Shown one piece after another: positions 14,857 to 55,385 of a stretch of 64,000 nucleotides of DNA. The notes below the pieces were generated by a model that saw nothing but the letters and a program-made list of their open reading frames with translations, did no database searches and had not been told where the DNA came from. The stretch's first letter is position 1; the number at the start of each line of letters is the position of its first letter. A program made the translations under genes and the position numbers. The DNA comes from Candidatus Omnitrophota bacterium (GTDB lineage Bacteria > Omnitrophota > Gorgyraeia > Aquiviventales > Aquiviventaceae), in contig JACQRA010000088.1 in assembly GCA_016206725.1 (NCBI GenBank), positions 1,622 through 65,621 of the forward strand. The letters run 5' to 3'.

Positions 14857-16830
14857 TCATTGTTCTCGGACGGCCGCCAGCTTCGCGCCATCGAGCACCC
14901 ACAGCCTCCCGCGCCAGCGCCGATCCATCTCGCCGACCTGCCGGAGGATCAGATCGCGGTAACTGGTCACGTCATGCTCATGGATCCACATCCGGCTGGA
15001 GGCGATCGTCTTGAACGACGCGACGGCATAGCGGTCGATGGTCTTCGATGCGAACAACCGGTTCAACTCGGGATCGTCGGCAAAGTCCCCCCGGGCGATG
15101 GCGTCGCGGTCCGTCGACATATCAAACCCTTTCGCGCTCGTGCTGGGCACGACGACGTAGCCCTCGGTCACCTCGCCCAGCGTCCGCACGTACCGAATCT
15201 GGAAGCGCTCGCGCACCCGCGGCGGCCAGACGCCGATGAACCCTTGGTTGTACGACGTATCGTAGGTCGCGAAGGATCGAATCGCCATCCGCTCCAGCGT
15301 GCGGTGCAGCCACGTCGAGGCCATGCGCGCCGGCCACACATCGGTCACGAAGATCCAGACATTCCACCCGACGCCGAGGGCGACCAGCCCGACCATCCCG
15401 CCCCACCAGACGCCCCGCACCCCGAGGGGAAACCGCGCGGCGGCCAGCGCGCCCGCATACCCGACGGCCAGCAAGAATCCGACCAGCGATGGAAAATAGG
15501 TCCGGCTGCACTGCGGCGACTGGGTCAGCTCGGCATACACGATTGGCGAAAGGCTCAGGAGCCCGAGCAGCGCCGCACCGACGACCTCGTGCGGTTCCCC
15601 ACCTCCCAGGCCGACCGTGGTCACGATGGTAGCCATGCTCACCCCGTAGGCCGCCACGTGGAAGGGCAAGGTTCGCCAGAAGAACGGCCACAGCCACCGC
15701 AGCCCCACGCGCATCTCGCCGGGGCGCAGAATCCTCCCGACGCTCGCGAAGAACTCTCGATAGAGCGGGTAGTGCGTCCACCGCTGCGCCGCCTGCCAGT
15801 AGCCCAGGTAACCCTTGAGGTTCCAGACGACGTTCGGCGCGGTGAAGAAGAGCGCGGCCAATCCGATCCCTACGAACAGGAGGCCATGCGCCACGTAGAA
15901 GGCGGGGGCTCGCGTCACCACCAGGCACGCCAGCAGATATCCGAGGAACCCCACTCCCAACCTGGTGACGACCCGCGTCACGACGGCTTCCTTCCCCAGA
16001 TAGTAGGCCAGCGGCAACTGGGCGCGCGCCGTGATAAGGCGGTTGAGCGCGCCGGCAGCCCGCTCGAAGTAGATCGCCGTCACAAGGCGCCGGAACCACC
16101 ACCGTCCCCACACGGCGACGCTGCCGAGGGCCGCCGCCAGAACGGCCGCGACGGCCAACAGCCACGGCCCCATCCCCTCTCCCAACGACGCCCATCCGCG
16201 CCCGCCGATGCCGAGCAAAGCCATCGTCTCCCGCTGGCTGTAGAGGAACGCCCCGGCGGCCAGCGGAAGGAACTTGCGCCCCGAGGCCGAGGCGAACATC
16301 ATCGCCCCCAGCCACGCCCCCGCCGCCACATACCAGAGCGCCCCGCCATCCGGCGCGGCGGACGCCTGCTGCAGAGACCAGACCGCACCGAGCAGCAGCA
16401 TCTGCGCCAACCCCTGGAACCCGCCGAGGAGGACAATTTGATACGGCCAGTAGCAGCCCATATACCAGACGAAGAGCAGGCCGGCCGCGGGCGCGCCCCA
16501 GTACGACCGGGCCACCGCAAAGAGCAGCACGGCGGAGACGGCGTGGACCAGGAGGGCCAAGACCGTCAGCGGCCGCCCCGTCTCGGTGTCCTTGAGCACC
16601 CGCTGCAGCAGTGCGACTCCCAGCAGCCCCACATCCTTCATCCAGGCCTTGTCCGTCGCGAACCGGTGCATGTCCGACGGCCACCGCCACTCCCGCGAGC
16701 GGGCGGCAGCGCGCACCTGCTTCTCCTGATCGGTGTGCGTCGCCACAAACAGGATGCCACGCGTCATGCGCCCGATGACCAGGGCAGTACTCACCGACAC
16801 CGCCACCACGCCGAGAAACATACCGTCCAT
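14857..16830 (-). CDS. polytopic integral membrane protein with C-terminal soluble domain; candidate glycan polymerase or GT-C-like transferase
   Basis: 657 aa with at least 10 hydrophobic helices, then a hydrophilic tail of about 170 aa. No confident family assignment. Confidence 0.4.
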   Translation of the reverse strand: MDGMFLGVVAVSVSTALVIGRMTRGILFVATHTDQEKQVRAAARSREWRWPSDMHRFATDKAWMKDVGLLGVALLQRVLKDTETGRPLTVLALLVHAVSAVLLFAVARSYWGAPAAGLLFVWYMGCYWPYQIVLLGGFQGLAQMLLLGAVWSLQQASAAPDGGALWYVAAGAWLGAMMFASASGRKFLPLAAGAFLYSQRETMALLGIGGRGWASLGEGMGPWLLAVAAVLAAALGSVAVWGRWWFRRLVTAIYFERAAGALNRLITARAQLPLAYYLGKEAVVTRVVTRLGVGFLGYLLACLVVTRAPAFYVAHGLLFVGIGLAALFFTAPNVVWNLKGYLGYWQAAQRWTHYPLYREFFASVGRILRPGEMRVGLRWLWPFFWRTLPFHVAAYGVSMATIVTTVGLGGGEPHEVVGAALLGLLSLSPIVYAELTQSPQCSRTYFPSLVGFLLAVGYAGALAAARFPLGVRGVWWGGMVGLVALGVGWNVWIFVTDVWPARMASTWLHRTLERMAIRSFATYDTSYNQGFIGVWPPRVRERFQIRYVRTLGEVTEGYVVVPSTSAKGFDMSTDRDAIARGDFADDPELNRLFASKTIDRYAVASFKTIASSRMWIHEHDVTSYRDLILRQVGEMDRRWRGRLWVLDGAKLAAVREQ

Positions 16831-22383: not shown

Positions 22384-23309
22384 GCGGCCTCTGCTCGGAC
22401 GAGACTCATCTCACGCTCCATCTCCGTGAGGCTTTCGTCCAGCGAGAGTAACCTCGTCCGGCGCAACACACCCTGAACCTTCGCTAGATGAAAGCCGGAT
22501 TGCAAAGGCCGAGGCCCGCGCTGTTCCAGCTCAGCCGTTGAAACGCCGTGGATGAGTGTTCGGTTCAATCCAAAACGCTCCGCGGTCTTCAGCGCCCACT
22601 CATACTTGGAACAGCGCGTCGTGCCGGCGACATGAAATAGACCCTGCTGTCCCAGCTCGACCAACTCCACCAGGGCTTCGGCGAACGTCGGCGCATACGT
22701 GACGTTTCCCACCTGATCATTCGGAACTCGCATCAGACGACCGGCGCGATCGTTGTCCAAGAGCTGCATGATGAAATTCTTGGCCGACACATGCGGCGCC
22801 CAACTGAAGACAAAGGACGTCCGCAGCACCAGCGCCTCCGGCAGGCGTTCCATCACGTAGCACTCCGCCATCAGCTTGGCGCGCCCCAACTGAGAGAGCG
22901 GATGGGGCGGATCGGTTTCGGCGTACGGCCCGGCCTGCCCATCGAAGACGTAATCGGTTGAGATCTGGATGAAGCGCGCGTTCACGGCCACCACGGCGTC
23001 AACGAGATGGCGCACTGTGTCATAGTGCGCGCGGATCGCAAGAGTTGGATCCGCTTCACACGCATCCGTGCCGCCTTGCGCGTTCAGGCTGTTCACGATC
23101 AGCCATGGGCGCCATTGCTCAATAAGCCGGCGCACCGGCTTGTCGTCCGTGGCGTCAAGCGCGACCGCTCCCGGCTGGGGATTCCGGTAGAAGGTCGGTA
23201 CGCAGGCCCAGCCTCGGTTCCGACACGCCTCCGCGAGACGCCAGCCGATTTGTCCGGAGCCGCCCACGATCAGGACCGGCTGCTCCTCGACCCTGCGCTT
23301 AGCCACCAT
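22380..23309 (-). CDS. RmlD-family nucleotide-sugar 4-reductase (dTDP-4-dehydrorhamnose reductase-like)
   Basis: From the internal Met: VLIVGGSGQIG, plus RmlD-like STDYVFDG. Confidence 0.65.
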   Translation of the reverse strand: MVAKRRVEEQPVLIVGGSGQIGWRLAEACRNRGWACVPTFYRNPQPGAVALDATDDKPVRRLIEQWRPWLIVNSLNAQGGTDACEADPTLAIRAHYDTVRHLVDAVVAVNARFIQISTDYVFDGQAGPYAETDPPHPLSQLGRAKLMAECYVMERLPEALVLRTSFVFSWAPHVSAKNFIMQLLDNDRAGRLMRVPNDQVGNVTYAPTFAEALVELVELGQQGLFHVAGTTRCSKYEWALKTAERFGLNRTLIHGVSTAELEQRGPRPLQSGFHLAKVQGVLRRTRLLSLDESLTEMEREMSLVRAEAA

Positions 23310-24300
23310 GATCCCTCGCCAACAACACGCACGAACCGTTGGCTTCGTAACCAACCCGCACTTCTTGCATGTCATGCAGCGCCAGGCGGATCGCGTCCTG
23401 GCGATCCTGAGGGCTCACCAGGAGCAGGAATCCGCCTCCGCCGGCCCCGCAGATTTTCCCGCCGACCGCGCCGGCCTCTTTCGCCCGCTCATACCACGCA
23501 TCAATGCGGTCATTCGAGATGCGGCTGGCCAGTTGGCGCTTGCGCTGCCAGGTCGTATCAAGGAGGCGCCCGAACGCCAGCGGATCGAATCCGTTGTGCA
23601 ACAACCCTTGGAGGAAACGGGCGTCTTCCCGCATGGTTTGCAGCACAGGAAATTTCTCAGGAATGTTGTCCTGTTGCTCTTTCAAGACGGAGGCCGCGTC
23701 GCGGCTCATCGCCGTCCAAAACATGACGAGATGATCGAACAATCGCTGCACTGCACCCTCCGGTAGATGCTGCGGCTCCACCGTCACCCGCCCGTCTGGC
23801 TGGAAACAGAAGAAATTGAGACCCCCAAAGGCGGCCGCATAGTGGTCTTGCTTGCCGATGGGACGCTTCAACACGTCCATCTCGATGTGCGACGCTTCTT
23901 CGGCCAATTGGACCGCCGAGGCGCGCTCTCCGCGAAAGACATGGAGGGCGTTCAGGAGGCCGACCGAAAAACTGCTAGAGGAACCCAATCCGGAAAACTC
24001 CGGAATGTCCGCCACGGTATTGATGTAGAGCGGGGGCTCCACGGGCACCAACCGAAGACACTCGCGCGCAATGTGGTTCTTGATCGCCTCCATCTGCTGG
24101 ACATGCTCGGTTTCCGAATAGTTCAACCGAAAGGCCTCATTGAACAGGCGACCGTGCCGTTTCACCGTCACATAGAGGTACTTGTCAATGGTCGTGCTCA
24201 ACACCGCGCCGTGTTCCCGTTCGTAGAAGGCCGGCAGATCCGTCCCCCCACCGGCGAAACTGATGCGCAATGGCGTGCGAGTGACCACCAACTCAACCAT
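23299..24300 (-). CDS. hddA: GHMP kinase, D-glycero-alpha-D-manno-heptose 7-phosphate kinase-like (HddA)
   Basis: RISFAGGGTD, GLGSSSS and GAGGGGF motifs. The likely start is the MVELVV Met. Confidence 0.7.
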   Translation of the reverse strand: MVELVVTRTPLRISFAGGGTDLPAFYEREHGAVLSTTIDKYLYVTVKRHGRLFNEAFRLNYSETEHVQQMEAIKNHIARECLRLVPVEPPLYINTVADIPEFSGLGSSSSFSVGLLNALHVFRGERASAVQLAEEASHIEMDVLKRPIGKQDHYAAAFGGLNFFCFQPDGRVTVEPQHLPEGAVQRLFDHLVMFWTAMSRDAASVLKEQQDNIPEKFPVLQTMREDARFLQGLLHNGFDPLAFGRLLDTTWQRKRQLASRISNDRIDAWYERAKEAGAVGGKICGAGGGGFLLLVSPQDRQDAIRLALHDMQEVRVGYEANGSCVLLARDHGG

Positions 24301-24742
24301 GCTTGAGCCCCCAGTCGTAGGGGATCTCGTTCGTGAACGGATCAAGATGGATGATCTCCTCAGGATCGTGCGGCTCAGTCGCGCAGTTGGCGAGAATCAC
24401 CAGCTTGTCCCCGTAGGCCTTGTAGCCGTTCGTGATGCCGGGAGGAATCTGCACGAGGCAGTAGTGGTCTTCGCCCAAGAAGATCTCCTGGATCTGGCCT
24501 TTCGTCGAAGAATGCTCACGTCCGTCATAGAGGACGAGTTTGGCCCGGCCGGAAATCACCGCATTGTTGAGCGTCATCGTCTTGTGCACGTGCCACGCCT
24601 TGATCGTGCCGGGCCACGCGCACGAAAAGTACATCTCCCCGAAGCGGATGAAATGCGGATCGGTCGCTTTGAGCATCAGCATGACCTTGCCCCGCTCATC
24701 GACAACCTGCTTGAGTGGAATGATCTTCACCCCCTCGATCAT
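24293..24742 (-). CDS. RmlC-like cupin (dTDP-4-dehydrorhamnose 3,5-epimerase family)
   Basis: 149 aa. The cupin core carries the conserved His (WHVHKTM). Confidence 0.65.
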   Translation of the reverse strand: MIEGVKIIPLKQVVDERGKVMLMLKATDPHFIRFGEMYFSCAWPGTIKAWHVHKTMTLNNAVISGRAKLVLYDGREHSSTKGQIQEIFLGEDHYCLVQIPPGITNGYKAYGDKLVILANCATEPHDPEEIIHLDPFTNEIPYDWGLKHG

Positions 24743-25977: not shown

Positions 25978-27027
25978 TTAGCTGTTGATCGCTGCGATCG
26001 CCTGCCACCGCAGGGAGTCGTCCAACCGCCCGCTCTCCAACAAATGCCGCAGCCATTTCAGCCGCGTAAACCGTTGATCCGTGAAGTCCTCATACGTCAG
26101 CCCCGTCGAGTGAAACGCGTCAGCCAGCCCCCGCGCGCCCTCTTCGACGCTCCACGTGAAGCGAAAATCTGGAAACGTGCGGGTGAACTTGCCGAAATCC
26201 GTCTTGTACGTGCGCTGATCCGCATCCGCGCTGGCCACACATTCAATCCGGCAGCCCGGCACGATCTGTGCCACGGTCTCGGCGAGCTCTCGGACCTGGT
26301 GATTCATGCGCGCCTCGCCGTTATTGAAGGCCTGGTTGTGCACCAGCTCGATGGGAGCCTCCAGGACATGGAGAAACGCCCGCGCAATGTCTTGCACGTG
26401 CGCCACCGGACGCCAGGGCGTGCCGTCACTGTGCAAGACGATCTTCCCTGTGGTGACCGCGGCGGTCACCAGGTTGTTCAGGACCGTGTCAAAGCGCATC
26501 CGCGGCGAGAGGCCGTAGATCGTGCCGTTGCGCAAAAACGTCGGCGAGAACGTGTCATCCGCCAGCCGGGCAATGGCCTGCTCGCTTTGCACTTTGGAGC
26601 GTGCATACGCCGTCTTCGGATCCAAGGGCGAGTCCTCATTGACCGTGACCGCCTCGGAGACGCCGTACATGATGCAGGAGGAGGAAAAAAGAAACCGCCT
26701 CACCCCCGCCTCCTTCGCCAATTCGGCGAGACGCACTGAGGCCTGACAATTGATCGCCTCGGTCCATTGCGGATTCAGATTACCGATTGGATCATTGCTC
26801 AACGCGGCCAGATGGATCACCGTCTCAGCCCCTTCCAGGTCTTGAATCGCCGCGTCTCGGAGATCTTTCTGGATCCAGGGAACCTGCACGGCATCAGGGA
26901 TGAGCGTGCACTCCGAAAAATATCCGGTATCCAGGCCGACGACGTTGTAGCCGGCTTCCACAAGGAGAGGGGTCATGACAGAACCGAGATACCCGTTGTG
27001 ACCGGTGACGACCACGCGCCTAGACAT
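25978..27027 (-). CDS. NAD-dependent epimerase/dehydratase
   Basis: Internal start MSRRVVVTGHNGYLGS. The C-terminal tail resembles that of 20494..21567, so the two may be paralogs. Confidence 0.7.
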   Translation of the reverse strand: MSRRVVVTGHNGYLGSVMTPLLVEAGYNVVGLDTGYFSECTLIPDAVQVPWIQKDLRDAAIQDLEGAETVIHLAALSNDPIGNLNPQWTEAINCQASVRLAELAKEAGVRRFLFSSSCIMYGVSEAVTVNEDSPLDPKTAYARSKVQSEQAIARLADDTFSPTFLRNGTIYGLSPRMRFDTVLNNLVTAAVTTGKIVLHSDGTPWRPVAHVQDIARAFLHVLEAPIELVHNQAFNNGEARMNHQVRELAETVAQIVPGCRIECVASADADQRTYKTDFGKFTRTFPDFRFTWSVEEGARGLADAFHSTGLTYEDFTDQRFTRLKWLRHLLESGRLDDSLRWQAIAAINS

Positions 27028-28312
27028 GCACGCACTCCGGCTGTGAGCCCACGATGTCGTGGACGACGTCCAGCAATGGCCGCTGGAGAGACACGCGCCT
27101 CCATGGACAGCCCGCCGCGTCAGCCGCTTGTCCGTCACGCTCGTCATCGCCGATGAACGGGGTGCGGCTCAAATCGAGATGGAACTCCCGCTGCGCGGCA
27201 ACGAGCATGCCGGGTTTCGGTTTGCGGCACTCGCAACCCTCATCCCATCCGTGGGGACAGTAGTAGATCGCGTCAATCCGTCCGCCAGCCGCCTCGACCT
27301 CAGCCTTCAGGCGTTCATGAACGGCCGTCAGATCCGCTTCCGTCATGGCTCCGCGGGCGATGCCGGCTTGGTTGGACACGACGATGACTCGATAGCCGGT
27401 CTCGCGAAGTCGCCGCAGGGCTTCCAACGCCCCCGGCAACCACTGCCAATCGTTCCATGAGCGAACATACTCGGCTCGAGGCGGCTTGACGTTCAAGACA
27501 CCGTCCCGATCCAGAATGACCGTCGGGCTCCTCGCCAAGAATCGTTGTGTGAGCGGGAGTCGCTCATGAGAGCTGACGCTGTAATAGCGATGGTCGGTGA
27601 CAAACGCGGCTAGGTGGCGTGACGCGATCAATCGCGGATAGATGACGCGCTCAAAACAGACGTTCTCATCCGGGATGTCGTCCAGGACCTCGTGTTGGAA
27701 GATGCCAAAGCCGATGTCCACCCCACGCAGGCTCGGGGCGCGACGCTCTTTGTCGTACACCGCAATGAAACCTTGCTCGTCCACTCGGACGTTGTCGCGG
27801 CTGTAGCCCTCGGCGTTTCGATACACCGTCAGCATCGCCGGCACATTCAACGACCGGTAGCGCGTCCACATCACCTCGAACGACATCGGCCAGTAGTTGT
27901 CGCAGTACATGAAGAGAAAACGGGGCTCAACGCGCGAAGCCGCGAGTTTGAGCCGCCGTCCTGTATCATCGCCCACCGCTGAGACCGCATAGTCAATCGC
28001 CAGTCCCCATCGGCGGCCGTCCTCGCAATACGATTGGATCACGTCAGGACGATACCCCAGCAACAGCAGCACGCGCTCGAATCCCTGCTCGCGCAACAGC
28101 TCAAGCAGATAGCCCAGGAACGGCTGACCGTGAAATTCGATCATCGGCTTGGGCGTGGTGTCGGTGAGCGGCCGAAGACGGCTTCCGCGCCCCCCCGCCA
28201 AGATCACCGCCTGCCGAGGTCGTCCCTCGACTCGCTGCGCTCGCTCGGGATGACCCTGAGCAAGGGCGCGTGACTGAAAGCTATAGCCCGCGTCGAAGGG
28301 TCGCTCCATCAC
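27020..28312 (-). CDS. bifunctional heptose-1-phosphate nucleotidyltransferase (HddC-like) / D,D-heptose 1,7-bisphosphate phosphatase (GmhB, HAD)
   Basis: N-terminal ILAGGRGSRLRPLT, and C-terminal ILDRDGVLN ... CRKPKPGM HAD motifs. Confidence 0.75.
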   Translation of the reverse strand: MMERPFDAGYSFQSRALAQGHPERAQRVEGRPRQAVILAGGRGSRLRPLTDTTPKPMIEFHGQPFLGYLLELLREQGFERVLLLLGYRPDVIQSYCEDGRRWGLAIDYAVSAVGDDTGRRLKLAASRVEPRFLFMYCDNYWPMSFEVMWTRYRSLNVPAMLTVYRNAEGYSRDNVRVDEQGFIAVYDKERRAPSLRGVDIGFGIFQHEVLDDIPDENVCFERVIYPRLIASRHLAAFVTDHRYYSVSSHERLPLTQRFLARSPTVILDRDGVLNVKPPRAEYVRSWNDWQWLPGALEALRRLRETGYRVIVVSNQAGIARGAMTEADLTAVHERLKAEVEAAGGRIDAIYYCPHGWDEGCECRKPKPGMLVAAQREFHLDLSRTPFIGDDERDGQAADAAGCPWRRVSLQRPLLDVVHDIVGSQPECVHV

Positions 28313-28950
28313 ACTCCCGATGGTTTCGCCGGGTACTCGGCCTTCCCGATGATCACATCCACCAGCGCCAAGAGCCAGAAGTGATGCGCCATCTCCACGA
28401 GGTTGTAGGCACGACTATCCACCCAGAAATTCTCATCACCCAGTTGGCGCAACGGGTTGTCCGCAGACAAGCCGGAGAACGTGACGACCGCGGCGAATGT
28501 CATGCGCCTGGCTGCCTCGCAGGCGTTGAGGATGTTCGGGGACTTTCCGCTGGACGAAATCGCGATCAGGACATCGCCGGCGTCGCCGTACTGTTCGACG
28601 GCTTTGGCCATCCACTGCTCGTAGCCGTAATCGTTGGCGAAGCACGTAATGAGATCGGCCTCATTGAAATTGATGGCGCGCACGCCGGCGTTCTTCGTCA
28701 AGTCCACCGCGACGTGGCTCGCCATCGCCGCACTGCCGCCGTTACCGATCAGGATGGTCTTGCGGCCGTGGCGAGCAGCCGTGACGACGAGATCCCGCAG
28801 CCGGATCAACCGGGGAATCCACGACCCATCACCCTGGCAGAGTCGTTGAAACTGCTCGGTATACTGCCGGAGGAACACTTCGGCCTCTTTCGAGCGGTCG
28901 CTCGTTCCTGCACGGGACATTCGGGTTGATCGGCTAACTGACACGGGCAT
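28309..28950 (-). CDS. gmhA: sedoheptulose-7-phosphate isomerase (SIS domain)
   Basis: ILIGNGGSAA and ISSSGKS motifs. Confidence 0.8.
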   Translation of the reverse strand: MPVSVSRSTRMSRAGTSDRSKEAEVFLRQYTEQFQRLCQGDGSWIPRLIRLRDLVVTAARHGRKTILIGNGGSAAMASHVAVDLTKNAGVRAINFNEADLITCFANDYGYEQWMAKAVEQYGDAGDVLIAISSSGKSPNILNACEAARRMTFAAVVTFSGLSADNPLRQLGDENFWVDSRAYNLVEMAHHFWLLALVDVIIGKAEYPAKPSGV

Positions 28951-31495
28951 AGTCGGGTCTCCTCTCAGCTTCTGTGTAGAGTCTGGCGTAGAAGGCGCCC
29001 TGCTGCATCAGGGTCTCATGCGTCCCGTGCTCCACCACGCGGCCGCCGTCAAGGACCATGACGTGATCGGCGTCTCTCACCGTGCTGAGCCGATGAGCGA
29101 TCACGATCACGATGGCGTCCTGATGCAGCGTCTTGATGGCCTCGTACACCGCCCGTTCCGTCAAGTTGTCCAGCGCGCTGGTGGCTTCATCAAAGATCAG
29201 CACGTCGGGCCGTCTCAGAATCGCTCGGGCGATCGCCAATCGTTGACACTGTCCGCCCGAGAGCCGCACGCCACGGTCTCCCACCATGGTGTCGTAGCCC
29301 TCAGGCAGCGAACCGATGAAGCCATCCAGTTGGGCGATACGGGTTGCCCACTCCACGTCAGATCGAGGAACCGTTTCATCACCGAGGGCGATGTTGTCTC
29401 GAATCGAAGCGCTGAAGACAAACACGTCCTGAGGGACATAACCGATCCGCTCTCGCCAGGCGCGCAGGTCCACCTCGCGCAGATCCACACCGTTGATGAG
29501 GACCGCCCCGTCGCCTGGCTCGTAGAGTCCCAACAGGAGGTTGGCCAACGTGCTCTTGCCGGAGCCTGTTGGTCCCACGAGCGCGGTGACGCTGCCCCGA
29601 GTCATGGAGGCGCTGATCCCCCGTAACACGTCCTGATCCGGACGCGCCGCGTACGTGAAGCTCGCCTCCCGCAGCTCGATCCGGTCGACTCGCTCCACGG
29701 CTCGACCTCCCCGACGCTCTTGGGGCAGATGCGTGAGGACCTCCTCCATCACCTCTAATTTCCGTTTGTGTTGGTTCAGCTCCACGCTGGCCTGATTCAC
29801 CATCGCCAACGACGGCGCGATGCGCCGGATACCCATCAGGAACGCCGCCAGCATCGAAAACCGCAGCCCAACCGAGGGGAACAGGAAGGTCGCAGCGCCA
29901 AGCCCCAGGACAATCACCACGGCGATGACTTCGTTCACCAGCATAGGCCCATGGCGGAAGACGACAAGTTGGAGCTCGGGTCGCCACTCAGCCATCGACA
30001 ACGCGTCCTGCCGCTGGACCATCTGCGGTTCCAGACGGTGGGCTTTGACGACCTTCACTCCATCAATCCCCTCAAGCTGGAGCTTTGATTGTTCGCTGCG
30101 AAGGCCGTAGAGCGTCCGCCCATGAGCCGCCGAGCGTCTGTCGGCGAAGACTCGCCACCCCTCCACGCCGATGAACGCGAAGAGCCCGATGATCAGTGTC
30201 ACCCACCATGAGAGGCACAATAACAGCGCCACCATGAGCGCACTACTGAGGATGCCCATCAGGAAGTGGCTCAACTGGGTGATGACGGCGGCCAACGACT
30301 CCGACGGTTGTTCGATATCGTTGAGGATGGCTCCCCGCGAGCGGCGTGTCATCTCCTCGTACCGCGCGTTCAGGAACCGTTCGAAGAGCGAGACCTTGAC
30401 ACGTCGGCGAAGCTTCACCGCGATGGCGGAGGTCCAGTACCAACTCAACAGAAAACATAGCCCGCGGATCACGAAGAAGAGACTGGCAACCGCCAACAGC
30501 GTGAACACCACCACGCTCATCGTGGTCGGCATGCCCAGCGCATGCAGCATGGCGGTAACCGCCGACACCACAGGACTCGCCTGTCCCCGTTCTGGTGCCG
30601 TCAGGACATCAAGCAGGGGCACCGTCAGACCGACCGTCGCAACGTCCAAGAGCGCTGCGCCAAGGATCAGCACCAGGAGTGTGGCTGACTCTCGCGGGTA
30701 GGGCTTCACCGCGATACGCCACGAAAAGGCCAGGGTGCCCAATGGTTTCGTGCCACCGAGGTTGGGAGAGAGTCGTCCTCGGATGATGCGCCAGCCGCTT
30801 CCGGCGATCAGCACAACGTTCTTCCACGTCAGCGCCTTCGAATGGCTTCGGGAACGGGCCTTGTTGGGAATCTGCACTTCCACGACCGATTTCCCTTCCC
30901 GGAGGAGTTGACACAGCAGCTCCGCCTGGTATCCGAATCCCGATGACCGGAATCCTCTGCGGCGCACATTGGCCGTCTTGTGGAGCACGGGACCGTTGTA
31001 GTACTGGAGCCTCGTGCCACTGAACCCTCTCACCAGGCGCACGAAGACTCGGCTGAGGGCACGCCGAAACGGACCACGCGCGTCCAACACTCCGAAGTAG
31101 GGGACGATCATCTCGGCTCGCCCCAGATGATCGAGTAGAATCCGCAGGGCTTCCGGTGGTTCCGCCCCATCTCCGCAGACCATCATGTAGTACTCCCCGA
31201 TGGCTTCATCGGCCGCCCGGAAGTAGCCGGCGCCGAGGCCGCAGCAAACCGGGTTGCGGAGCACGCAAATGCGACACGCCGGATAGCGACGGCATCGATC
31301 GAGCGCCTCCTCGACCGATCCATCCATCGAGGCATCATCCACCACCAGGATTTCGTAGGGGTTGTGTCGCCCGTCCATCACGTCAACGATCGTATCAATC
31401 GTGCGACCCACATTGCCCTCTTCGTTGCGGCAGGGCACGAAGAACGTGAGTGACGGCTCGGCTGACATCGCGTTATCCTTCCAAGGCTCCACCAA
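28934..31495 (-). CDS. fusion protein: GT2 polyprenyl-phosphate glycosyltransferase-like domain + ABC exporter (transmembrane domain + nucleotide-binding domain)
   Basis: 853 aa. N-terminal FFVPCRNEEGNV...VVDDASMDGS (DPM1/GtrB-like GT2). The middle is a 6-TM exporter domain. The C-terminus has Walker A GPTGSGKST, the LSGGQCQR signature and Walker B ILIFDEATSALD. Ends in TAG. Confidence 0.75.
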   Translation of the reverse strand: MVEPWKDNAMSAEPSLTFFVPCRNEEGNVGRTIDTIVDVMDGRHNPYEILVVDDASMDGSVEEALDRCRRYPACRICVLRNPVCCGLGAGYFRAADEAIGEYYMMVCGDGAEPPEALRILLDHLGRAEMIVPYFGVLDARGPFRRALSRVFVRLVRGFSGTRLQYYNGPVLHKTANVRRRGFRSSGFGYQAELLCQLLREGKSVVEVQIPNKARSRSHSKALTWKNVVLIAGSGWRIIRGRLSPNLGGTKPLGTLAFSWRIAVKPYPRESATLLVLILGAALLDVATVGLTVPLLDVLTAPERGQASPVVSAVTAMLHALGMPTTMSVVVFTLLAVASLFFVIRGLCFLLSWYWTSAIAVKLRRRVKVSLFERFLNARYEEMTRRSRGAILNDIEQPSESLAAVITQLSHFLMGILSSALMVALLLCLSWWVTLIIGLFAFIGVEGWRVFADRRSAAHGRTLYGLRSEQSKLQLEGIDGVKVVKAHRLEPQMVQRQDALSMAEWRPELQLVVFRHGPMLVNEVIAVVIVLGLGAATFLFPSVGLRFSMLAAFLMGIRRIAPSLAMVNQASVELNQHKRKLEVMEEVLTHLPQERRGGRAVERVDRIELREASFTYAARPDQDVLRGISASMTRGSVTALVGPTGSGKSTLANLLLGLYEPGDGAVLINGVDLREVDLRAWRERIGYVPQDVFVFSASIRDNIALGDETVPRSDVEWATRIAQLDGFIGSLPEGYDTMVGDRGVRLSGGQCQRLAIARAILRRPDVLIFDEATSALDNLTERAVYEAIKTLHQDAIVIVIAHRLSTVRDADHVMVLDGGRVVEHGTHETLMQQGAFYARLYTEAERRPDYARVS

Positions 31496-31967
31496 GGAGT
31501 CGCGTCAGCCTCTGCGCCCCCCGCGACAGCGCTCGTCCCACCGGGGTCAGGCTGACAGACTCCTCCTCGAGACGCAATAAGCCTGTGTCGTGCATCAACC
31601 GGATTCGGTCGTCAAATCGCCTCGAAGCGACGTACTCCTCAAGGAGCGTGTCAAACTCCACGGACTCCGCTCGGTGTGGGAGAAGGCGGGAGAGCAGCGT
31701 GACTGACACGGACCTTGCCAGCCCCGCATAGATAAAGAAGTAGAGGGTCGACCAGAACCCTGTCAGCCACAGCACGGCACAGGCGTCGATCCATGGCAAC
31801 CGGTTCACACCAACAGCCATCCATCCTGCGACCACCATGCCCATCACGGCCAGTCCTGTCAACCGTACTATTCGGGGTGCATTCGAAGGCCTCGCCCGCC
31901 AGATCAGCACATGCAGGAGGAAGAAGACTCCAAGACCGATGGCAACCGAAGACAGCACGCGGTCCAT
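31473..31967 (-). CDS. small integral membrane protein (hypothetical)
   Basis: About 164 aa from the MDRVLSS Met, with hydrophobic helices then a soluble tail. TGATG overlap with the upstream gene. The ORF-table N-terminal extension overlaps its neighbour out of frame. Confidence 0.45.
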   Translation of the reverse strand: MDRVLSSVAIGLGVFFLLHVLIWRARPSNAPRIVRLTGLAVMGMVVAGWMAVGVNRLPWIDACAVLWLTGFWSTLYFFIYAGLARSVSVTLLSRLLPHRAESVEFDTLLEEYVASRRFDDRIRLMHDTGLLRLEEESVSLTPVGRALSRGAQRLTRLLGGALEG

Positions 31968-32491
31968 CAGCCCACCACCTCCAGTCGCAAGAACTTGCGC
32001 ATCCCGACCATCATCGTCGCACAGCACACGCCCAGCGCCGTCAGCGGTCCCACGCGCCGCCCATCGAATTGCACAAGATGCCATTGCGCCAGGCCGGTCA
32101 GCCGACGCGTCAGCAGGCCGCGCATCCCCATGCCGTTGCTGTAGCCGTCCTGCAGGCGCGACACGCTGACACCTTCCGGTTGGTCCAGCGCATCGACCAG
32201 AATTCTCAGCGAATAGCCGCGCGAGAGCAGCGAACGCACCTCCACATACACGATCACGCCGGTCAGATAGAAGCCGATCGATCCGACCTGTAGGACCAGC
32301 GGCATCGTGCTCATGCCGATCAACAACCCTGCGAGACCGGCTCCGATCATGACGGCCAGGATCGCCGCTGAGACCGCCGGCGCATTCGGATGCCTGATCG
32401 CCTTCAGGCACCTCAAGGCGGCGATGTGCAGAGCCGCCAGCGCCAGCCACATCAGCGCAACAAGCGCACACGCGGTTCCGATTACGACCAT
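31967..32491 (-). CDS. small integral membrane protein (hypothetical)
   Basis: 174 aa with the same architecture as 31473..31967 (helices plus a SLLSR-containing tail). Confidence 0.45.
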   Translation of the reverse strand: MVVIGTACALVALMWLALAALHIAALRCLKAIRHPNAPAVSAAILAVMIGAGLAGLLIGMSTMPLVLQVGSIGFYLTGVIVYVEVRSLLSRGYSLRILVDALDQPEGVSVSRLQDGYSNGMGMRGLLTRRLTGLAQWHLVQFDGRRVGPLTALGVCCATMMVGMRKFLRLEVVG

Positions 32492-41024: not shown

Positions 41025-42538
41025 GCTGCGACGGGCGCGTGCTGCCTTGTCAGCTTATGCGACGCCATCTGTCGGATGTGCGCCACGGTTTCTTCGCCGA
41101 ACTTCTGGCGGATCATCTCCAGGTACCTGGACGAGGTGAAGTACGTCTCGAAGGCGTGATCGCGAAACCGCAACACCTCCGCCCCTGAGAGGTAGTTCGT
41201 CGGCAGCGGCAGGGTGTCCACCGCATGCTGGGAGTAGCCGGACCACCGCTGCGGCAGCGGCCAGCCATTCTGAATGGCCAGTTCATACAGCGCGCTTCCA
41301 GGGTAAGACATACAGGAATAGAAATTGGCGAACTCACAGTTGAGCTCGAGTGCCAGATCGAGTGTTTCCTGCATCGTGGCGAGGTCGTCTTCGGGCAAGC
41401 CGAACATGTAGTTGCCGATCACGTAGATGCCGGCCTCCCGCACCCGAGTGATGGTCTTGGCGATGTCCTCTTGATCGAAGCCTTTCTGCACGTGATCCCG
41501 TACCCGCGCGTTGGCCGCCTCGATCCCGAACGCCAGCCAGTGGAAACCGGCACGTTTGAGCACCTCCACCATCTCTTCCCGCACCGTATCGACTCGCGCG
41601 TAGGCCCAGATGTTCAGATCGTAGCCGCGCGCGATGATGGCTTCGCAGATTCCGAGGACATGCTTGGGGTGAAGCACAAACATCTCATCCGCGATCTTGA
41701 CGTGCCGTACCCCGTACTGATTGACCAGGGTGTCAAGCTGTGCCATCACGGATTCGATACTCCAGAATCTGTAGCTGTTCGTCGTGGCTTTCAGTCCAAG
41801 CTCCTTTTCCCCACTCTTGAACGGAATTTGGATACAGCAGAACTGACAATGGAACGGACACCCAAGGGTTGTATATAAACTCGCATACGGCTGACGCGAC
41901 GGCTCGCCGAGGGCATGCCAGTTATGCGCGCGGTATTTTTCCATCGGCAACAGATCCCACGCAACGCCAGGCATCTCGCCGGCGAGGTCTTTGAGCAGGG
42001 GTGCTGCGGGATTGTGCCGGATGGCGCCGTCTTCGCGATACCACAGGTCCCGAACCTTCTGCAGCTCGGGATGCGGGGTCTTCAACGCCTCGATCAATTC
42101 CCACATCGTGTAGAGCCCCTCGCCGCTGCAGACGAAATCCCCTGCCTCCTCGCGCAGGGTGCGCTCAGGCAGCGCGGCGACATGACCGCCAACTAAGAGC
42201 ACGGCCTGCTCGGGATGACGCCGCTTGATTGCGGTGCAGATCGCCCCGGCCGCGGTCATGTTCTGGGTCGAGGCAGAGGGCTGGTGGCCGTAGACGACCA
42301 CGGCGATCAGGCGCGGTTTCATCGCGATGGCTCGCGCTGCCGCCGCGTCGGGTGTGAGTTCTTCAGCTTCGGCATCGAGAACGGCCACGGAGCAGCCTTT
42401 CCGACGGAGAAACGTCGCCATCAATCCCGCCCACACCGGCGGCTCAATCGCGGTCAACGTCGTGCCAAGCCCCTGATAGACCTGGGCGCGACTCCCCGGA
42501 TTGATCAGCACCACGTCGAGGTCCGGCGCTGCCCTCAT
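41021..42538 (-). CDS. B12-binding (cobalamin-dependent) radical SAM enzyme
   Basis: N-terminal B12-binding-like domain (VVLINPG...), then CPFHCQFC, a CxxxCxxC motif. ATGA overlap with the UbiA stop. Confidence 0.75.
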   Translation of the reverse strand: MRAAPDLDVVLINPGSRAQVYQGLGTTLTAIEPPVWAGLMATFLRRKGCSVAVLDAEAEELTPDAAAARAIAMKPRLIAVVVYGHQPSASTQNMTAAGAICTAIKRRHPEQAVLLVGGHVAALPERTLREEAGDFVCSGEGLYTMWELIEALKTPHPELQKVRDLWYREDGAIRHNPAAPLLKDLAGEMPGVAWDLLPMEKYRAHNWHALGEPSRQPYASLYTTLGCPFHCQFCCIQIPFKSGEKELGLKATTNSYRFWSIESVMAQLDTLVNQYGVRHVKIADEMFVLHPKHVLGICEAIIARGYDLNIWAYARVDTVREEMVEVLKRAGFHWLAFGIEAANARVRDHVQKGFDQEDIAKTITRVREAGIYVIGNYMFGLPEDDLATMQETLDLALELNCEFANFYSCMSYPGSALYELAIQNGWPLPQRWSGYSQHAVDTLPLPTNYLSGAEVLRFRDHAFETYFTSSRYLEMIRQKFGEETVAHIRQMASHKLTRQHAPVAA

Positions 42539-43491
42539 CTCATGCGTTCTCCGTAGAGAATCACGCCGGCGGTCGCCACCCACAACAGCAGATTCACCAT
42601 CATCGGGCGGTCCGTCAGAATGCTCTGGGTCGGGTCTCCCCCTTCTTCCTTGTGATAGACCAAATAGAGGTAACGGAAGAACCCATACAAGACAAACGGG
42701 ACGGTCAGCAGCAGCCCTGGCGAACCAAATCGCCCGACGATCTCCTCGCTCACGGTGTAGAGCGTGTAGCTGACCAGTGCGGAAGCCGTGATAATGCCGA
42801 CCATCGCATCGAGAAACGGCAGAGGGTAATCCGTCAGGACTTGCCGGTGATTCGGCGCGCCGTCCTCGAGGAGCACGAGCTCATGGCGACGTTTGCAGAG
42901 GGCGATGAACAACGCCAACAACGTCGTGCAAATCAGCACCCACGCGCTCATCGTCACTTGGAGCACGACGGCCCCGGCAAGCACCCGCAAGAGATAGCCG
43001 GCTGCGACCACGAAAACATCCAGGATGACGGCATGCTTGAGCCTCCAGGCATAGAGCAGGTTCAGTCCCCAATAGGTTGAGAGGACAAGGGCTAAGGACA
43101 CGCTCAAGGCGGCCCCACCCAACAGACTCAGCAGCAACAACCCCACAACCGCGGCTCGGGCGATCCCCACACGCAGCAGCCCCGCGGCCAGCGGGCGGCG
43201 GCGCTTTTCCGGATGGAGGCGGTCCTGTGCGCAATCGGTGAGATCATTCAAGAGGTAGATCGAACTGCTGGCGAGGCAGAAACATCCACAGGCCGCGAGG
43301 CTGCGCAGGAGTGCGTCCAGGGAAAAGACGTGCGGCGAAAAGAAGAGCGGAGCCAACACGAAGAAATTTTTCACCCACTGCGTGGGTCGCAGCTCAACCC
43401 AGAGGGCCCGCAGCGGACCTGGTGGGGGAGGCCGGTTCGGCTCGGCCTGGCTCACAGGCGTTTCCAAGACCAGCGAATCAGGAGACATCAT
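42535..43491 (-). CDS. UbiA-family prenyltransferase, decaprenyl-phosphate phosphoribosyltransferase-like
   Basis: NDLTDCAQDRLHPEKRRRPLAAG motif (NDxxDxxxDR...HP.K..RPL), about 8 TM helices, 318 aa. Confidence 0.7.
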   Translation of the reverse strand: MMSPDSLVLETPVSQAEPNRPPPPGPLRALWVELRPTQWVKNFFVLAPLFFSPHVFSLDALLRSLAACGCFCLASSSIYLLNDLTDCAQDRLHPEKRRRPLAAGLLRVGIARAAVVGLLLLSLLGGAALSVSLALVLSTYWGLNLLYAWRLKHAVILDVFVVAAGYLLRVLAGAVVLQVTMSAWVLICTTLLALFIALCKRRHELVLLEDGAPNHRQVLTDYPLPFLDAMVGIITASALVSYTLYTVSEEIVGRFGSPGLLLTVPFVLYGFFRYLYLVYHKEEGGDPTQSILTDRPMMVNLLLWVATAGVILYGERMR

Positions 43492-52627: not shown

Positions 52628-54430
52628 CTATTGTGATGGAGCCTTTGGGTTTGTCAATGAGAAACTTACGAGGCGGAAGAACCCATAGGCGGCCAGCATG
52701 ATGAGGAACGGCTCGAGCGGAGTTCGGTGTCGGTACGCGCACTCGAAAAAGAGGTGCACGACACTGCGCGAAGCCAGCACGACGAGCAGCAGCCACCAGT
52801 CTAATCGCTTGACCGGTTCGCGCAAGGAGCGCCAGAGCACCACACCGAACCCCACCCACGCCGCCGCGTAGGCATACCACCACATCCAGGACCAATAGAG
52901 GCTGCCCCGCATGAGGAAGATGGGATCAAAGGCGCCAAACCCATGGGAAAAGAACAGCACGCGAGCATTCCCCGCAACCGCGGCGGCCATGTTCACCATC
53001 ACGTTCAAGGGCTGAGTCCTGAAGAGCGCCCAAGCCCCCTGGGGATCGCGCCATGGATTGAGCCACACATGCATGTTCACGGGTGAGTTCATCGAGACAA
53101 ACCACTGCATGTTGAGGCGTCCCGCCCCTTGGAAGTGAAGCGACCCGTCGTGGACGCTCAGCGCAAATGGGGCCAGGATGACGAGGAACCCGAGCGACAA
53201 TCCCAGGCCATGGATCACGGCGGTACGCCAGCCCAGCTTGGCCCGGATGCCAAGCAGGAACCAGCCGATGAGGAAGAACCAGAACATGATATTGCTTTCA
53301 CGCGTTACAGCCGCCCACCCCAACAAGCCGCCAATTCCAACGATCCATCTGCCCCACCGATGAGGATCCTCCACATATCTGAGGAGGCACCAGACGACCA
53401 ACAGCGTCCAGAAGGGATCCACGGCTTGGTGTCCGATCGCAGCCGCGGAAAAGATCATGAGAAAATCCAATGCCCCGAACACCGCGGCAATCCGCGCCAC
53501 CATCCGACCAAATAGCCGTTTGGCCACGTCGTACAGGAGGAGACACGTGAGCGCCCCGATCACCGATTGCACGGCACAGACCAGAAAATAGGACCTCCCG
53601 CCCAGCCAGTAGATCAGCGCGAGGAACCGAACGTAGCCCGGCGCAAAGAGGGGGATGTCCGACCAGGGCGTCTTTCCACCGTGCAGCAACGACATCGCCA
53701 GCGCATCATACGCCGGTCCGTCTGAGCCGGTCTCCCAATAATTCGGATCCGACATCACGCGGGTCGTGTAAAACAGCCGGAACGCCAGCGCGACAAGGAA
53801 CACGACCGCAAGGAACACCGGCTCGCTCGCGAGGGCGGTTCGGATGCGGGCACTCCACGCCTTGACGATCCGGGTCGAGGCCATCACGCTTCCCGCCACA
53901 CCCAGGAGGGTTGCACAAACGGTGAACCAGCGAGCGACCACCAGCGAAACAGCCCACAGCGCCGCGTATCCTAAGATAAGCGGGAGGAAGAAGAGCGAGG
54001 GATCCTCTGTACCCCTGCGGCGCCACCGCGCGAGAAGCTGCGCGCCCGCCACCATCCCCGCGACCAGCACGCCACCCCACAACGCGAAGCAGTACCGCAC
54101 GTACCAGGGAGAGAAGGTCGCAACACCCGGCTCGTGCGTCAAGTGCCAGACGAAGCTTGCGAAGAGGCCGAACAGATGGAGGGAGAGCCCGAGTCGTATC
54201 GCCCAACGCCAGCGCGCGCGGAGGGAACGGTCGAAGAAGACGCTGAAGGACCAGGCATAGAGCGCGACGCTCGCCCAGTACAAGAGTGGGACCGGAACCA
54301 CCACCCCTTCCATGAGCGGAACCGAAAGGCGAACCAGTCCGCCGTCCCACCAGATGATTTCAGCAACGAGGGCCGCGCAGAGCCCGCCCCCCAACAACAT
54401 CACGAGGAACCCGCGTGCGTTGGTGGACAT
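52628..54430 (-). CDS. GT-C superfamily glycosyltransferase (ArnT/PMT_2-like) with N-terminal multi-TM extension
   Basis: PMT_2-like segment GSDGPAYDALAMSLLHGG after 5-6 extra helices. About 600 aa with at least 14 helices. Confidence 0.55.
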   Translation of the reverse strand: MSTNARGFLVMLLGGGLCAALVAEIIWWDGGLVRLSVPLMEGVVVPVPLLYWASVALYAWSFSVFFDRSLRARWRWAIRLGLSLHLFGLFASFVWHLTHEPGVATFSPWYVRYCFALWGGVLVAGMVAGAQLLARWRRRGTEDPSLFFLPLILGYAALWAVSLVVARWFTVCATLLGVAGSVMASTRIVKAWSARIRTALASEPVFLAVVFLVALAFRLFYTTRVMSDPNYWETGSDGPAYDALAMSLLHGGKTPWSDIPLFAPGYVRFLALIYWLGGRSYFLVCAVQSVIGALTCLLLYDVAKRLFGRMVARIAAVFGALDFLMIFSAAAIGHQAVDPFWTLLVVWCLLRYVEDPHRWGRWIVGIGGLLGWAAVTRESNIMFWFFLIGWFLLGIRAKLGWRTAVIHGLGLSLGFLVILAPFALSVHDGSLHFQGAGRLNMQWFVSMNSPVNMHVWLNPWRDPQGAWALFRTQPLNVMVNMAAAVAGNARVLFFSHGFGAFDPIFLMRGSLYWSWMWWYAYAAAWVGFGVVLWRSLREPVKRLDWWLLLVVLASRSVVHLFFECAYRHRTPLEPFLIMLAAYGFFRLVSFSLTNPKAPSQ

Positions 54431-54431
54431 G

Positions 54432-55385
54432 TCACCCGCGCGAAGGAGAGAGCCCTGCATATCGGCTGAGCCACGCGATCGTCTTTGACAACCCTTCCTC
54501 AAGATCAATCGCCGGCTGCCACTTCAGGAGGGTCTTGGCTTTCGTCACATCCGGTTGACGCTGCTTGGGATCATCCTGGGGTAACGGGCGGAACTCGATC
54601 CGGCTGGCCGTCTCCTTACAATACGTCAGCACCCGCTTGGCGATCTCCAGGATGGCGCACTCATCCGGATTGCCGAGATTCACCGGCTCATGGAGGTCGC
54701 TGTCCATCAGTCGGCGGATGCCTTCGATCAGATCATCAATGTAACAGAAGCTCCGCGTCTGGCTCCCATCACCATACACCGTCAGCGGCTCGCCCCGCAA
54801 GGCTTGAGCGATGAAGGTGGGAATCGCCCGCCCGTCATCGAGCCGCATCCGCGGTCCATACGAGTTGAAGATGCGCACGATCCTCGTGTCCACTCCATGC
54901 TCACGGTGGTACGCCATGGTCAAGGCTTCCGCGAACCGCTTGGCTTCGTCGTAGACCCCTCGAGGCCCGACCGGATTGACATGGCCCCAGTAGCCCTCCG
55001 GTTGGGGATGCACCTGCGGGTCGCCGTACACTTCCGATGTGGAGGCCAAGAGGAACTTGGCGCCTTTCGCTTTCGCAATGCCCAGGGCATTCAAGGTGCC
55101 GAGCGAACCCACCTTCAGGGTCTGGATAGGATATTTCAGGTAATCCGGGGGGCTGGCGGGTGAGGCAAAGTGCAGGATATGGTCGAGAGGTCCCTCGACG
55201 TCAAGCGGCTGGCTGATGTTGTGCTCGAGGAATTGGAAACGCCCGTGTGACTGCAGGTGCGACACGTTGACGCGCGTTCCGGTGATGAGGTTGTCCACAC
55301 AGATGACGTGGTGCCCTTCTGCGACGAGCCGCTCGCAGAGATGCGATCCGATAAAGCCGGCTCCTCCGGTGATGAGGACGTTCAT
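54432..55385 (-). CDS. uxs: UDP-glucuronate decarboxylase (UDP-xylose synthase family)
   Basis: From the internal Met: [15 protein letters not shown], plus YDEAKR catalytic motif and UXS-like length. ATGA overlap with the upstream gene. Confidence 0.8.

Follow-up and report, generated by a model that had tools for sequence, protein, structure and literature searches.

A GT2 glycosyltransferase fused to an ABC exporter in an uncultured Omnitrophota bacterium suggests one protein that makes and flips a lipid-linked sugar

Introduction

The locus analyzed here, from an uncultured Omnitrophota bacterium, raises the question of whether a single protein can both make a lipid-linked sugar and flip it across the membrane. 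The machinery that flips Dol-P-Man and Und-P-sugar donors is unidentified in eukaryotes, including the ER flippases of Dol-P-Man and Dol-P-Glc (PMC12992685), and only inferred in bacteria, where the candidates GtrA, ArnE/F, Rv3789, and MATE owe their assignment largely to genetics and gene neighborhoods and not to assays that measure flipping directly (PMC11127046). In the 64-kb stretch of DNA analyzed (the window), a GT2 glycosyltransferase and an ABC exporter share one reading frame, and the features of this gene suggest a protein with both activities.

The Fused Gene

The open reading frame at 28934..31495 on the minus strand encodes 853 aa without an internal stop or frameshift, and it joins the GT2 module and the ABC exporter in one polypeptide as the earlier note had claimed. 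Pfam searches recovered the three domains in the order proposed there, namely Glycos_transf_2 (aa 18–181, 1.9e-15, 57.6 bits against a cutoff of 23.3), ABC_membrane (aa 333–503, 35.1 bits against a cutoff of 28), and ABC_tran (aa 624–773, 9.6e-32). The fusion is confirmed as real; a frameshift or stop between the two parts masked by an artefact of the window's assembly is excluded because the same fusion is found on contigs from different projects. The frame itself stands, but its start had probably been placed too far upstream. The likely start codon is the ATG at 31468, because a GGAAGGA ribosome-binding site lies upstream, the ATG is located 4 nt after the TAA of the upstream gene (31473–31475), and the resulting protein matches the public protein P0001, which is identical to the fused protein of the window. 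The whole gene (28934..31468, minus strand; 844 aa plus stop) comprises the GT2 module, a linker, the ABC transmembrane domain (TMD), and the NBD, and its full-length AlphaFold model is confident (mean pLDDT 88.8).

The Glycosyltransferase Module

The GT2 module (aa 1–233; 30770..31468, minus strand) consists of a GT-A fold (aa 1–199) with an N-terminal nucleotide-binding half, an acceptor-loop-like segment (aa 200–214), and a C-terminal amphipathic interface helix (aa 215–233; hydrophobic moment ~1.0 for aa 213–231). A further helix is predicted at aa 133–150 in the AlphaFold model, giving the two amphipathic juxtamembrane helices and acceptor loop of DPMS, GtrB, and ArnC. DPMS is the best match by sequence and by both structure methods, with alignments that span both interface helices. 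The top structural matches, DPMS (PfDPMS, PDB 5mlz), GtrB (5ekp), and ArnC (9bhc, 8vxh), share with the module the GT-A fold followed by acceptor loop and interface helices, and an aspartate that aligns with D100. Arg-x3-Ser in the first interface helix and an Arg/Lys pair in the acceptor loop are probable further common features. Identity is just 14–22%.

Asp100 (codon 31169..31171, minus strand) is the single invariant Asp of the family motif G99–D100 in the HMMER alignment, a 57-sequence family alignment, and all fused members, and HMMER places it opposite Asp91 of PfDPMS, which binds the metal. Of the two Asp residues in the D-A-D motif of DPMS, the second corresponds to D100, whereas the first has given way to Cys in the window and to Cys or Asn in relatives. 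Among the roles described for Asp89 and Asp91 in PfDPMS, Asp89 makes no direct contact with the metal (PMC5526996). Where PfDPMS has Gln93, this family has Ala, Gly, or Val and then an acidic residue that is conserved. On the acceptor side, the phosphate ligands Arg117, Arg131, and Ser135 of PfDPMS were used for comparison. R131, R135, and S139 of the GT2 are invariant in the 57 family members, and the R135-x3-S139 spacing equals that of PfDPMS Arg131-x3-Ser135, but the two pairs match only when the register of the HMMER alignment is moved by one residue.

The assignment of this part to the GtrB/ArnC/DPM1 type, as made in the earlier note, is partly supported: the DPMS-like fold, D100, and the interface helices agree with it, but not the first Asp of DXD, the Gln93 equivalent, or the curated NCBIfam models, which score far below their cutoffs (ArnC 19.6 bits against 529; AglJ 23.4 against 325). 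The module also lacks the C-terminal TM helices that GtrB and ArnC (two each) and PfDPMS (four) possess. No transmembrane segment was found in aa 1–241, and the ABC TMD comes next instead. Free-standing relatives are 233–300 aa long, and together these GT2 proteins form a separate family of ~250-aa proteins with its own invariant motifs, YYNGPVLH and GFGYQAE. The N-terminal module is most likely a polyprenyl-phosphate sugar synthase, which would load a sugar onto a membrane carrier lipid.

The ABC Exporter Half

The inter-domain linker (aa 234–241; 30746..30769, minus strand) is predicted with low confidence (pLDDT <50 at aa 237–241), and in homologs it varies in sequence and in length (~8 to 60 aa). 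It leads into the ABC TMD (aa 242–585; 29714..30745, minus strand), for which Pfam, secondary structure, and Foldseek indicate an elbow helix (aa 242–254) and six long TM helices of the type IV/ABCB fold. The NBD (aa 586–844; 28934..29713, minus strand) has retained every motif of a catalytically competent domain, namely Walker A (GPTGSGKST), the Q-loop, LSGGQ, Walker B (LIFDE), and the H-loop. A type IV exporter is recognized by a single chain in which an elbow helix and six long TM helices precede the NBD, and Pfam, the model, Foldseek, and the motif table agree with the six-helix exporter domain and canonical NBD described previously. Foldseek matched this half to ABCB10, ABCB8, MsbA, and P-gp (E ~1e-28 to the first three), and a PDB sequence search also finds matches for it; in ordinary single-copy alignments, solved chains cover at most ~630 of the 844 residues of the fused protein. 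The NBD motifs, including the Walker B D-E, and the GT2 family motifs are intact in all 10 aligned fused proteins (that of the window and nine homologs).

A subfamily-specific periplasmic insertion between TM1 and TM2 (aa 291–316; 30521..30598, minus strand), seen in the model and the alignment, carries a conserved VPLLDxLT motif followed by a short helix (aa 299–310). This insertion of ~25–30 aa is conserved across homologs and missing from aligned MsbA-, NdvA-, and Sav1866-type sequences. As far as published descriptions allow the likeness, the short helix recalls the external helix of PglK, the docking place of the polyprenyl tail at the periplasmic membrane boundary (PMC4900756). Among NCBIfam models, the ABC part matches exporters of polysaccharides and lipid-glycans best, namely HepA (1.2e-106), MsbA (2.7e-99), and PglK (5.6e-69), with scores well below every curated cutoff (357.6 against 725, 333.2 against 602, and 233 against 1000, respectively). 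Like PglK, Wzk, and MsbA, the last of which is among the best structural matches, the ABC part is a half-transporter with elbow helix, six TM helices, and canonical NBD. However, those proteins move pyrophosphate-linked oligosaccharides or lipid A-core rather than monophosphate-linked monosaccharides, and none of them has a fused glycosyltransferase.

Neighboring Genes

The fused gene stands at the head of a conserved heptose cassette. A GmhA-like sedoheptulose-7-phosphate isomerase gene (28309..28950, minus strand; Pfam SIS_2; NCBIfam gmhA 6.3e-23, below cutoff) overlaps its 3′ end and, in support of this assignment by synteny, always comes next after the ABC gene. It is accompanied by a bifunctional protein (27020..28312, minus strand) that Pfam and NCBIfam describe as an HddC-like sugar-1-phosphate nucleotidyltransferase (6.2e-19) joined to a heptose-1,7-bisphosphate phosphatase (GmhB; 177.8 bits, cutoff 178). 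An HddA-like heptose-7-phosphate kinase (23299..24345, minus strand; Pfam, synteny, and NCBIfam HddA 2.1e-43, below cutoff), an epimerase/dehydratase (25978..27147), and a cupin epimerase (24293..24742) complete the cassette. Sugar-tailoring enzymes are abundant in the locus, including four DegT, two B12-rSAM, ThDP E1 alpha and beta, and methyltransferases. Genes of these loci overlap by a few bases throughout.

Two small membrane proteins are encoded upstream. The first (165 aa; 31473..31970, minus strand) immediately precedes the GT2, free and fused alike, in each locus that includes upstream DNA; its identity to the versions from L006, L009, L011, and every fused locus is 41–58%, and a counterpart is annotated as a gene in L013–L015 and L017. 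Its partner (174 aa; 31967..32491, minus strand) is equally conserved in position and 43–55% identical to its counterparts. Pfam and NCBIfam searches gave no family match for either protein. The pair accompanies the GT2 and not the ABC, and the 174-aa protein is absent from ABC-only loci.

Of two GT-C enzymes expected as users of the sugar donor, one was found, a PMT_2 glycosyltransferase (52628..54508, minus strand; Pfam PMT_2 3e-11, 44.2 bits against a cutoff of 26.1), whereas the 657-aa protein at 14857..16830 has no detectable family. The PMT_2 protein, a candidate periplasmic user of a polyprenyl-phosphate sugar, is encoded 21 kb from the fused gene, is 49% identical to the product of a PMT_2 gene beside UbiA in L004/L118, and is syntenic with UbiA in ABC-only loci. 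The window's own UbiA-family polyprenyl-phosphate phosphoribosyltransferase (42535..43491, minus strand; NCBIfam NF008977, 273.9 bits against a cutoff of 234; Pfam UbiA) is a second, independent lipid-linked sugar donor synthase and possibly an alternative source of the ABC substrate. An LtaS-like membrane enzyme is also encoded in the window. Among the window genes, no Wzx/MOP, MATE, or GtrA flippase is recognizable by Pfam, and no dedicated small flippase family (GtrA, SMR ArnE/F, MATE) was detected beside the synthase by Pfam or NCBIfam. Apart from UbiA, no initiating phosphoglycosyltransferase and almost no cytoplasmic oligosaccharide-building glycosyltransferases were found in the 64 kb.

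Distribution of the Fusion and of Each Half

The in-frame GT2–linker–ABC arrangement occurs on 10 further contigs (L001, L013, L015, L099, L100, L101, L104, L107, L109, and L113/L014) and in the protein clusters P0002–P0009 and P0011. Identity among fused homologs is 55–69% for the GT2 module, 53–80% for the TMD, and 63–78% for the NBD, and among 1.84 billion representatives the fusion falls into just one cluster at 50% identity. In related genomes each half also occurs as a separate gene, but not side by side; in the loci examined, a GT2 near this ABC is always fused to it. A free GT2 is followed directly by the SIS gene in L017. Conversely, in ~10 loci the ABC gene is preceded by B12-rSAM and GHMP kinase genes with no GT2 within 6–10 kb, and in L098 an ABC 80% identical to that of the window follows a TIGR04372 glycosyltransferase gene instead of a GT2. 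P0017/P0019 are stand-alone orthologs of the ABC half. The ABC-only locus L004/L118 has UbiA and PMT_2 and lacks the GT2.

Relatives of the GT2 are fused to other partners, including the GT-C enzymes YfhO (P0379) and PMT_2 (P0250 and P0102), and a DprE1-like FAD oxidase (P0051). In P0263 the partner is a GmhB-like phosphatase, and in P0279 it is LPG_synthase_TM, a lipid flippase domain of the MprF type. Free-standing orthologs adjoin DprE1/DprE2-like genes, and their membrane partners include a 504–533 aa polytopic protein and, directly after the GT2 in L006, a small flippase resembling ArnF/ArnE (2.7e-12). Other lineages thus have a flippase-type protein in the position right after the GT2 that the ABC takes up here. 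This uncharacterized TM-less DPMS-like family is widespread in Omnitrophota, Nitrospinota, Elusimicrobia, and Gemmatimonadota, and its conserved partners (the pair of small membrane proteins and the DprE1/E2-like enzymes, along with the GT-C fusions) point to an unexplored lipid-linked heptose (or related) envelope chemistry in uncultured bacteria.

Proposed Mechanism and Alternative Explanations

The fused protein would be an inner-membrane, homodimeric half-transporter. Its cytoplasmic DPMS-like module would move a sugar from a nucleotide sugar onto undecaprenyl (polyprenyl) phosphate at the cytoplasmic membrane face. The donor is most probably a GDP-heptose derivative, supplied by the adjoining downstream cassette together with the upstream tailoring genes. 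The short flexible linker would tether the amphipathic C-terminal helix of the GT2 to the ABC elbow helix, and the modeled topology fits, as both helices belong at the cytoplasmic membrane surface. The type IV exporter may then spend ATP to bring this product, a polyprenyl-phosphate sugar, into the periplasmic leaflet. There a GT-C enzyme would pass the sugar to a surface glycan. Such a protein would follow a three-component logic of extracytoplasmic glycosylation, with an ABC transporter wired to the synthase standing in for the customary small flippase (GtrA, ArnE/F, or MATE). The fusion, its conservation, the intact motifs, the DPMS-like fold, and the genomic associations are observed here, whereas we infer which lipid accepts the sugar, which sugar it is, and most of all that the ABC half transports the GT2 product.

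As a whole, a bifunctional synthase/flippase with a polyprenyl-phosphate heptose-type product is a tentative reading, a little short of an even chance. It is supported by the maintenance of the fusion with all motifs intact in the window and on the further contigs, by the GT-C, DprE1-like, ArnE/F-like, and MprF-type proteins fused to or beside GT2 relatives, by the insertion helix reminiscent of PglK, and by the lack of a recognized flippase of another type in the window. On the other hand, it is weakened by the occurrence of each half without the other in the same syntenic position (L017, the ABC-only loci, and L098), and by the reduced DXD, the missing Gln93 equivalent, and the low ArnC and AglJ scores. 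The two small membrane proteins could be the flippase or the anchor, making the ABC unnecessary for flipping. In addition, Dol-P-Man flipping is reported to be ATP-independent, which counts against an ATP-driven step (discussed in PMC12992685).

Some of these points lead to an alternative that is unlikely yet the strongest of those considered, in which the protein does have two functions, yet what its ABC half flips is some other lipid-linked glycan, either a heptose-containing undecaprenyl-pyrophosphate oligosaccharide, as with PglK/Wzk, or the product of the UbiA phosphoribosyltransferase. The GT2 would then be fused only for membrane anchoring or co-localization, and its own product flipped by the two small membrane proteins or another flippase. 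The ABC subfamily indeed exists without the GT2, as in L004/L118, yet always heads the heptose cassette; the small membrane proteins travel with the GT2, free GT2 genes have other membrane partners, and HepA, MsbA, and PglK are the nearest models of the ABC. However, the near lack of oligosaccharide-building enzymes in the window argues against an oligosaccharide substrate, and the ABC misses every equivalog cutoff by a factor of ~2 or more. Moreover, if the small proteins anchor the GT2, anchoring fails to explain a fusion kept over 57–80% sequence divergence.

Since the fusion falls in a single 50% cluster, it could also be a lineage-specific accident between neighboring, translationally coupled genes, a neutral join by loss of a stop codon that couples nothing mechanistically. 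The cargo of the ABC half might then even be a soluble metabolite derived from heptose and not a lipid-linked sugar. The narrow clade, the small gene overlaps that make read-through fusion easy, the variable linker, and tailoring enzymes of a kind also found in glycoside natural-product clusters are consistent with this explanation, and L098 indicates that the GT2 can be replaced or lost beside a very similar ABC. We nevertheless consider it rather improbable. At least 11 contigs keep the fusion across substantial divergence with both halves similarly constrained and no decayed motifs, and no adjacent but unfused intermediate was seen in the loci examined. Members of the GT2 family have also been joined independently to GT-C enzymes and to a different flippase domain, so that fusion with membrane partners encoded downstream is a recurrent, meaningful pattern. 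The GT-C, UbiA, and LtaS-like membrane enzymes of the window speak for envelope glycoconjugates and not for a secreted metabolite. Less probable still is that the N-terminal module uses another acceptor (a glycan, glycerolipid, peptide, or phosphorylated small molecule, as in GpgS/MpgS) whose product the ABC exports, given the DPMS match through both interface helices, the existence of TM-less DPM1-type synthases, and partners (GT-C, DprE1/E2-like, ArnE/F-like, and the MprF flippase domain) that are all specific to lipid-linked sugar chemistry.

Comparison With Other Synthase–Flippase Systems

The proposed order of synthase, flippase, and periplasmic GT-C user is that of GtrA/GtrB/Gtr*, ArnC/ArnE-F/ArnT, and CsbB/GtcA/YfhO, as well as the polyprenyl-phosphoribose synthase/MATE/GT136 system (PMC11127046), and the PMT_2 gene in the window and the YfhO and PMT_2 fusions of GT2 relatives are compatible with it. 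In contrast to those systems, in which the flippases are small GtrA/SMR-type or MATE proteins encoded by separate genes, the candidate here is a fused, ATP-driven type IV ABC transporter. MprF/PplT-domain fusions (bioRxiv 10.1101/2022.03.11.483950) share the principle of wiring a lipid-modifying enzyme to the translocase of its product, and P0279 carries the same LPG_synthase_TM/PplT domain. However, PplT is an ATP-independent translocase of unrelated fold, whereas the partner here is a primary active transporter.

Read as a “Rosetta stone,” the synthase–ABC fusion predicts a new class of flippase. A more doubtful step, though a conceivable one, is that this would be the first ABC-type, ATP-driven flippase for a polyprenyl-monophosphate monosaccharide, with the product passing directly from the active site of the coupled synthase into the transporter. 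If so, it would offer a tractable one-protein model of how Dol-P-Man or Und-P-sugar donors cross the bilayer. The single polypeptide could also allow synthesis and ATP-dependent flipping to be studied in one reconstituted system and separated by the point mutations D100A or, in Walker B, E761Q. If the coupling is incidental, the finding shrinks to an unusual but ordinary domain fusion.

Catalytic domains without TM helices that work with membrane partners are found in human DPM1, with DPM2/DPM3, and in mycobacterial Ppm1, with its membrane domain. The window GT2 family resembles these in its TM-less catalytic domain and separate or fused membrane proteins, and, should the synthase/flippase reading be correct, the two small proteins that accompany it would be a DPM2/DPM3-like accessory complex of a bacterial TM-less DPM1-type synthase. 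They differ from DPM2/DPM3 in having ~3–4 TM helices and a C-terminal soluble domain of ~70 aa.

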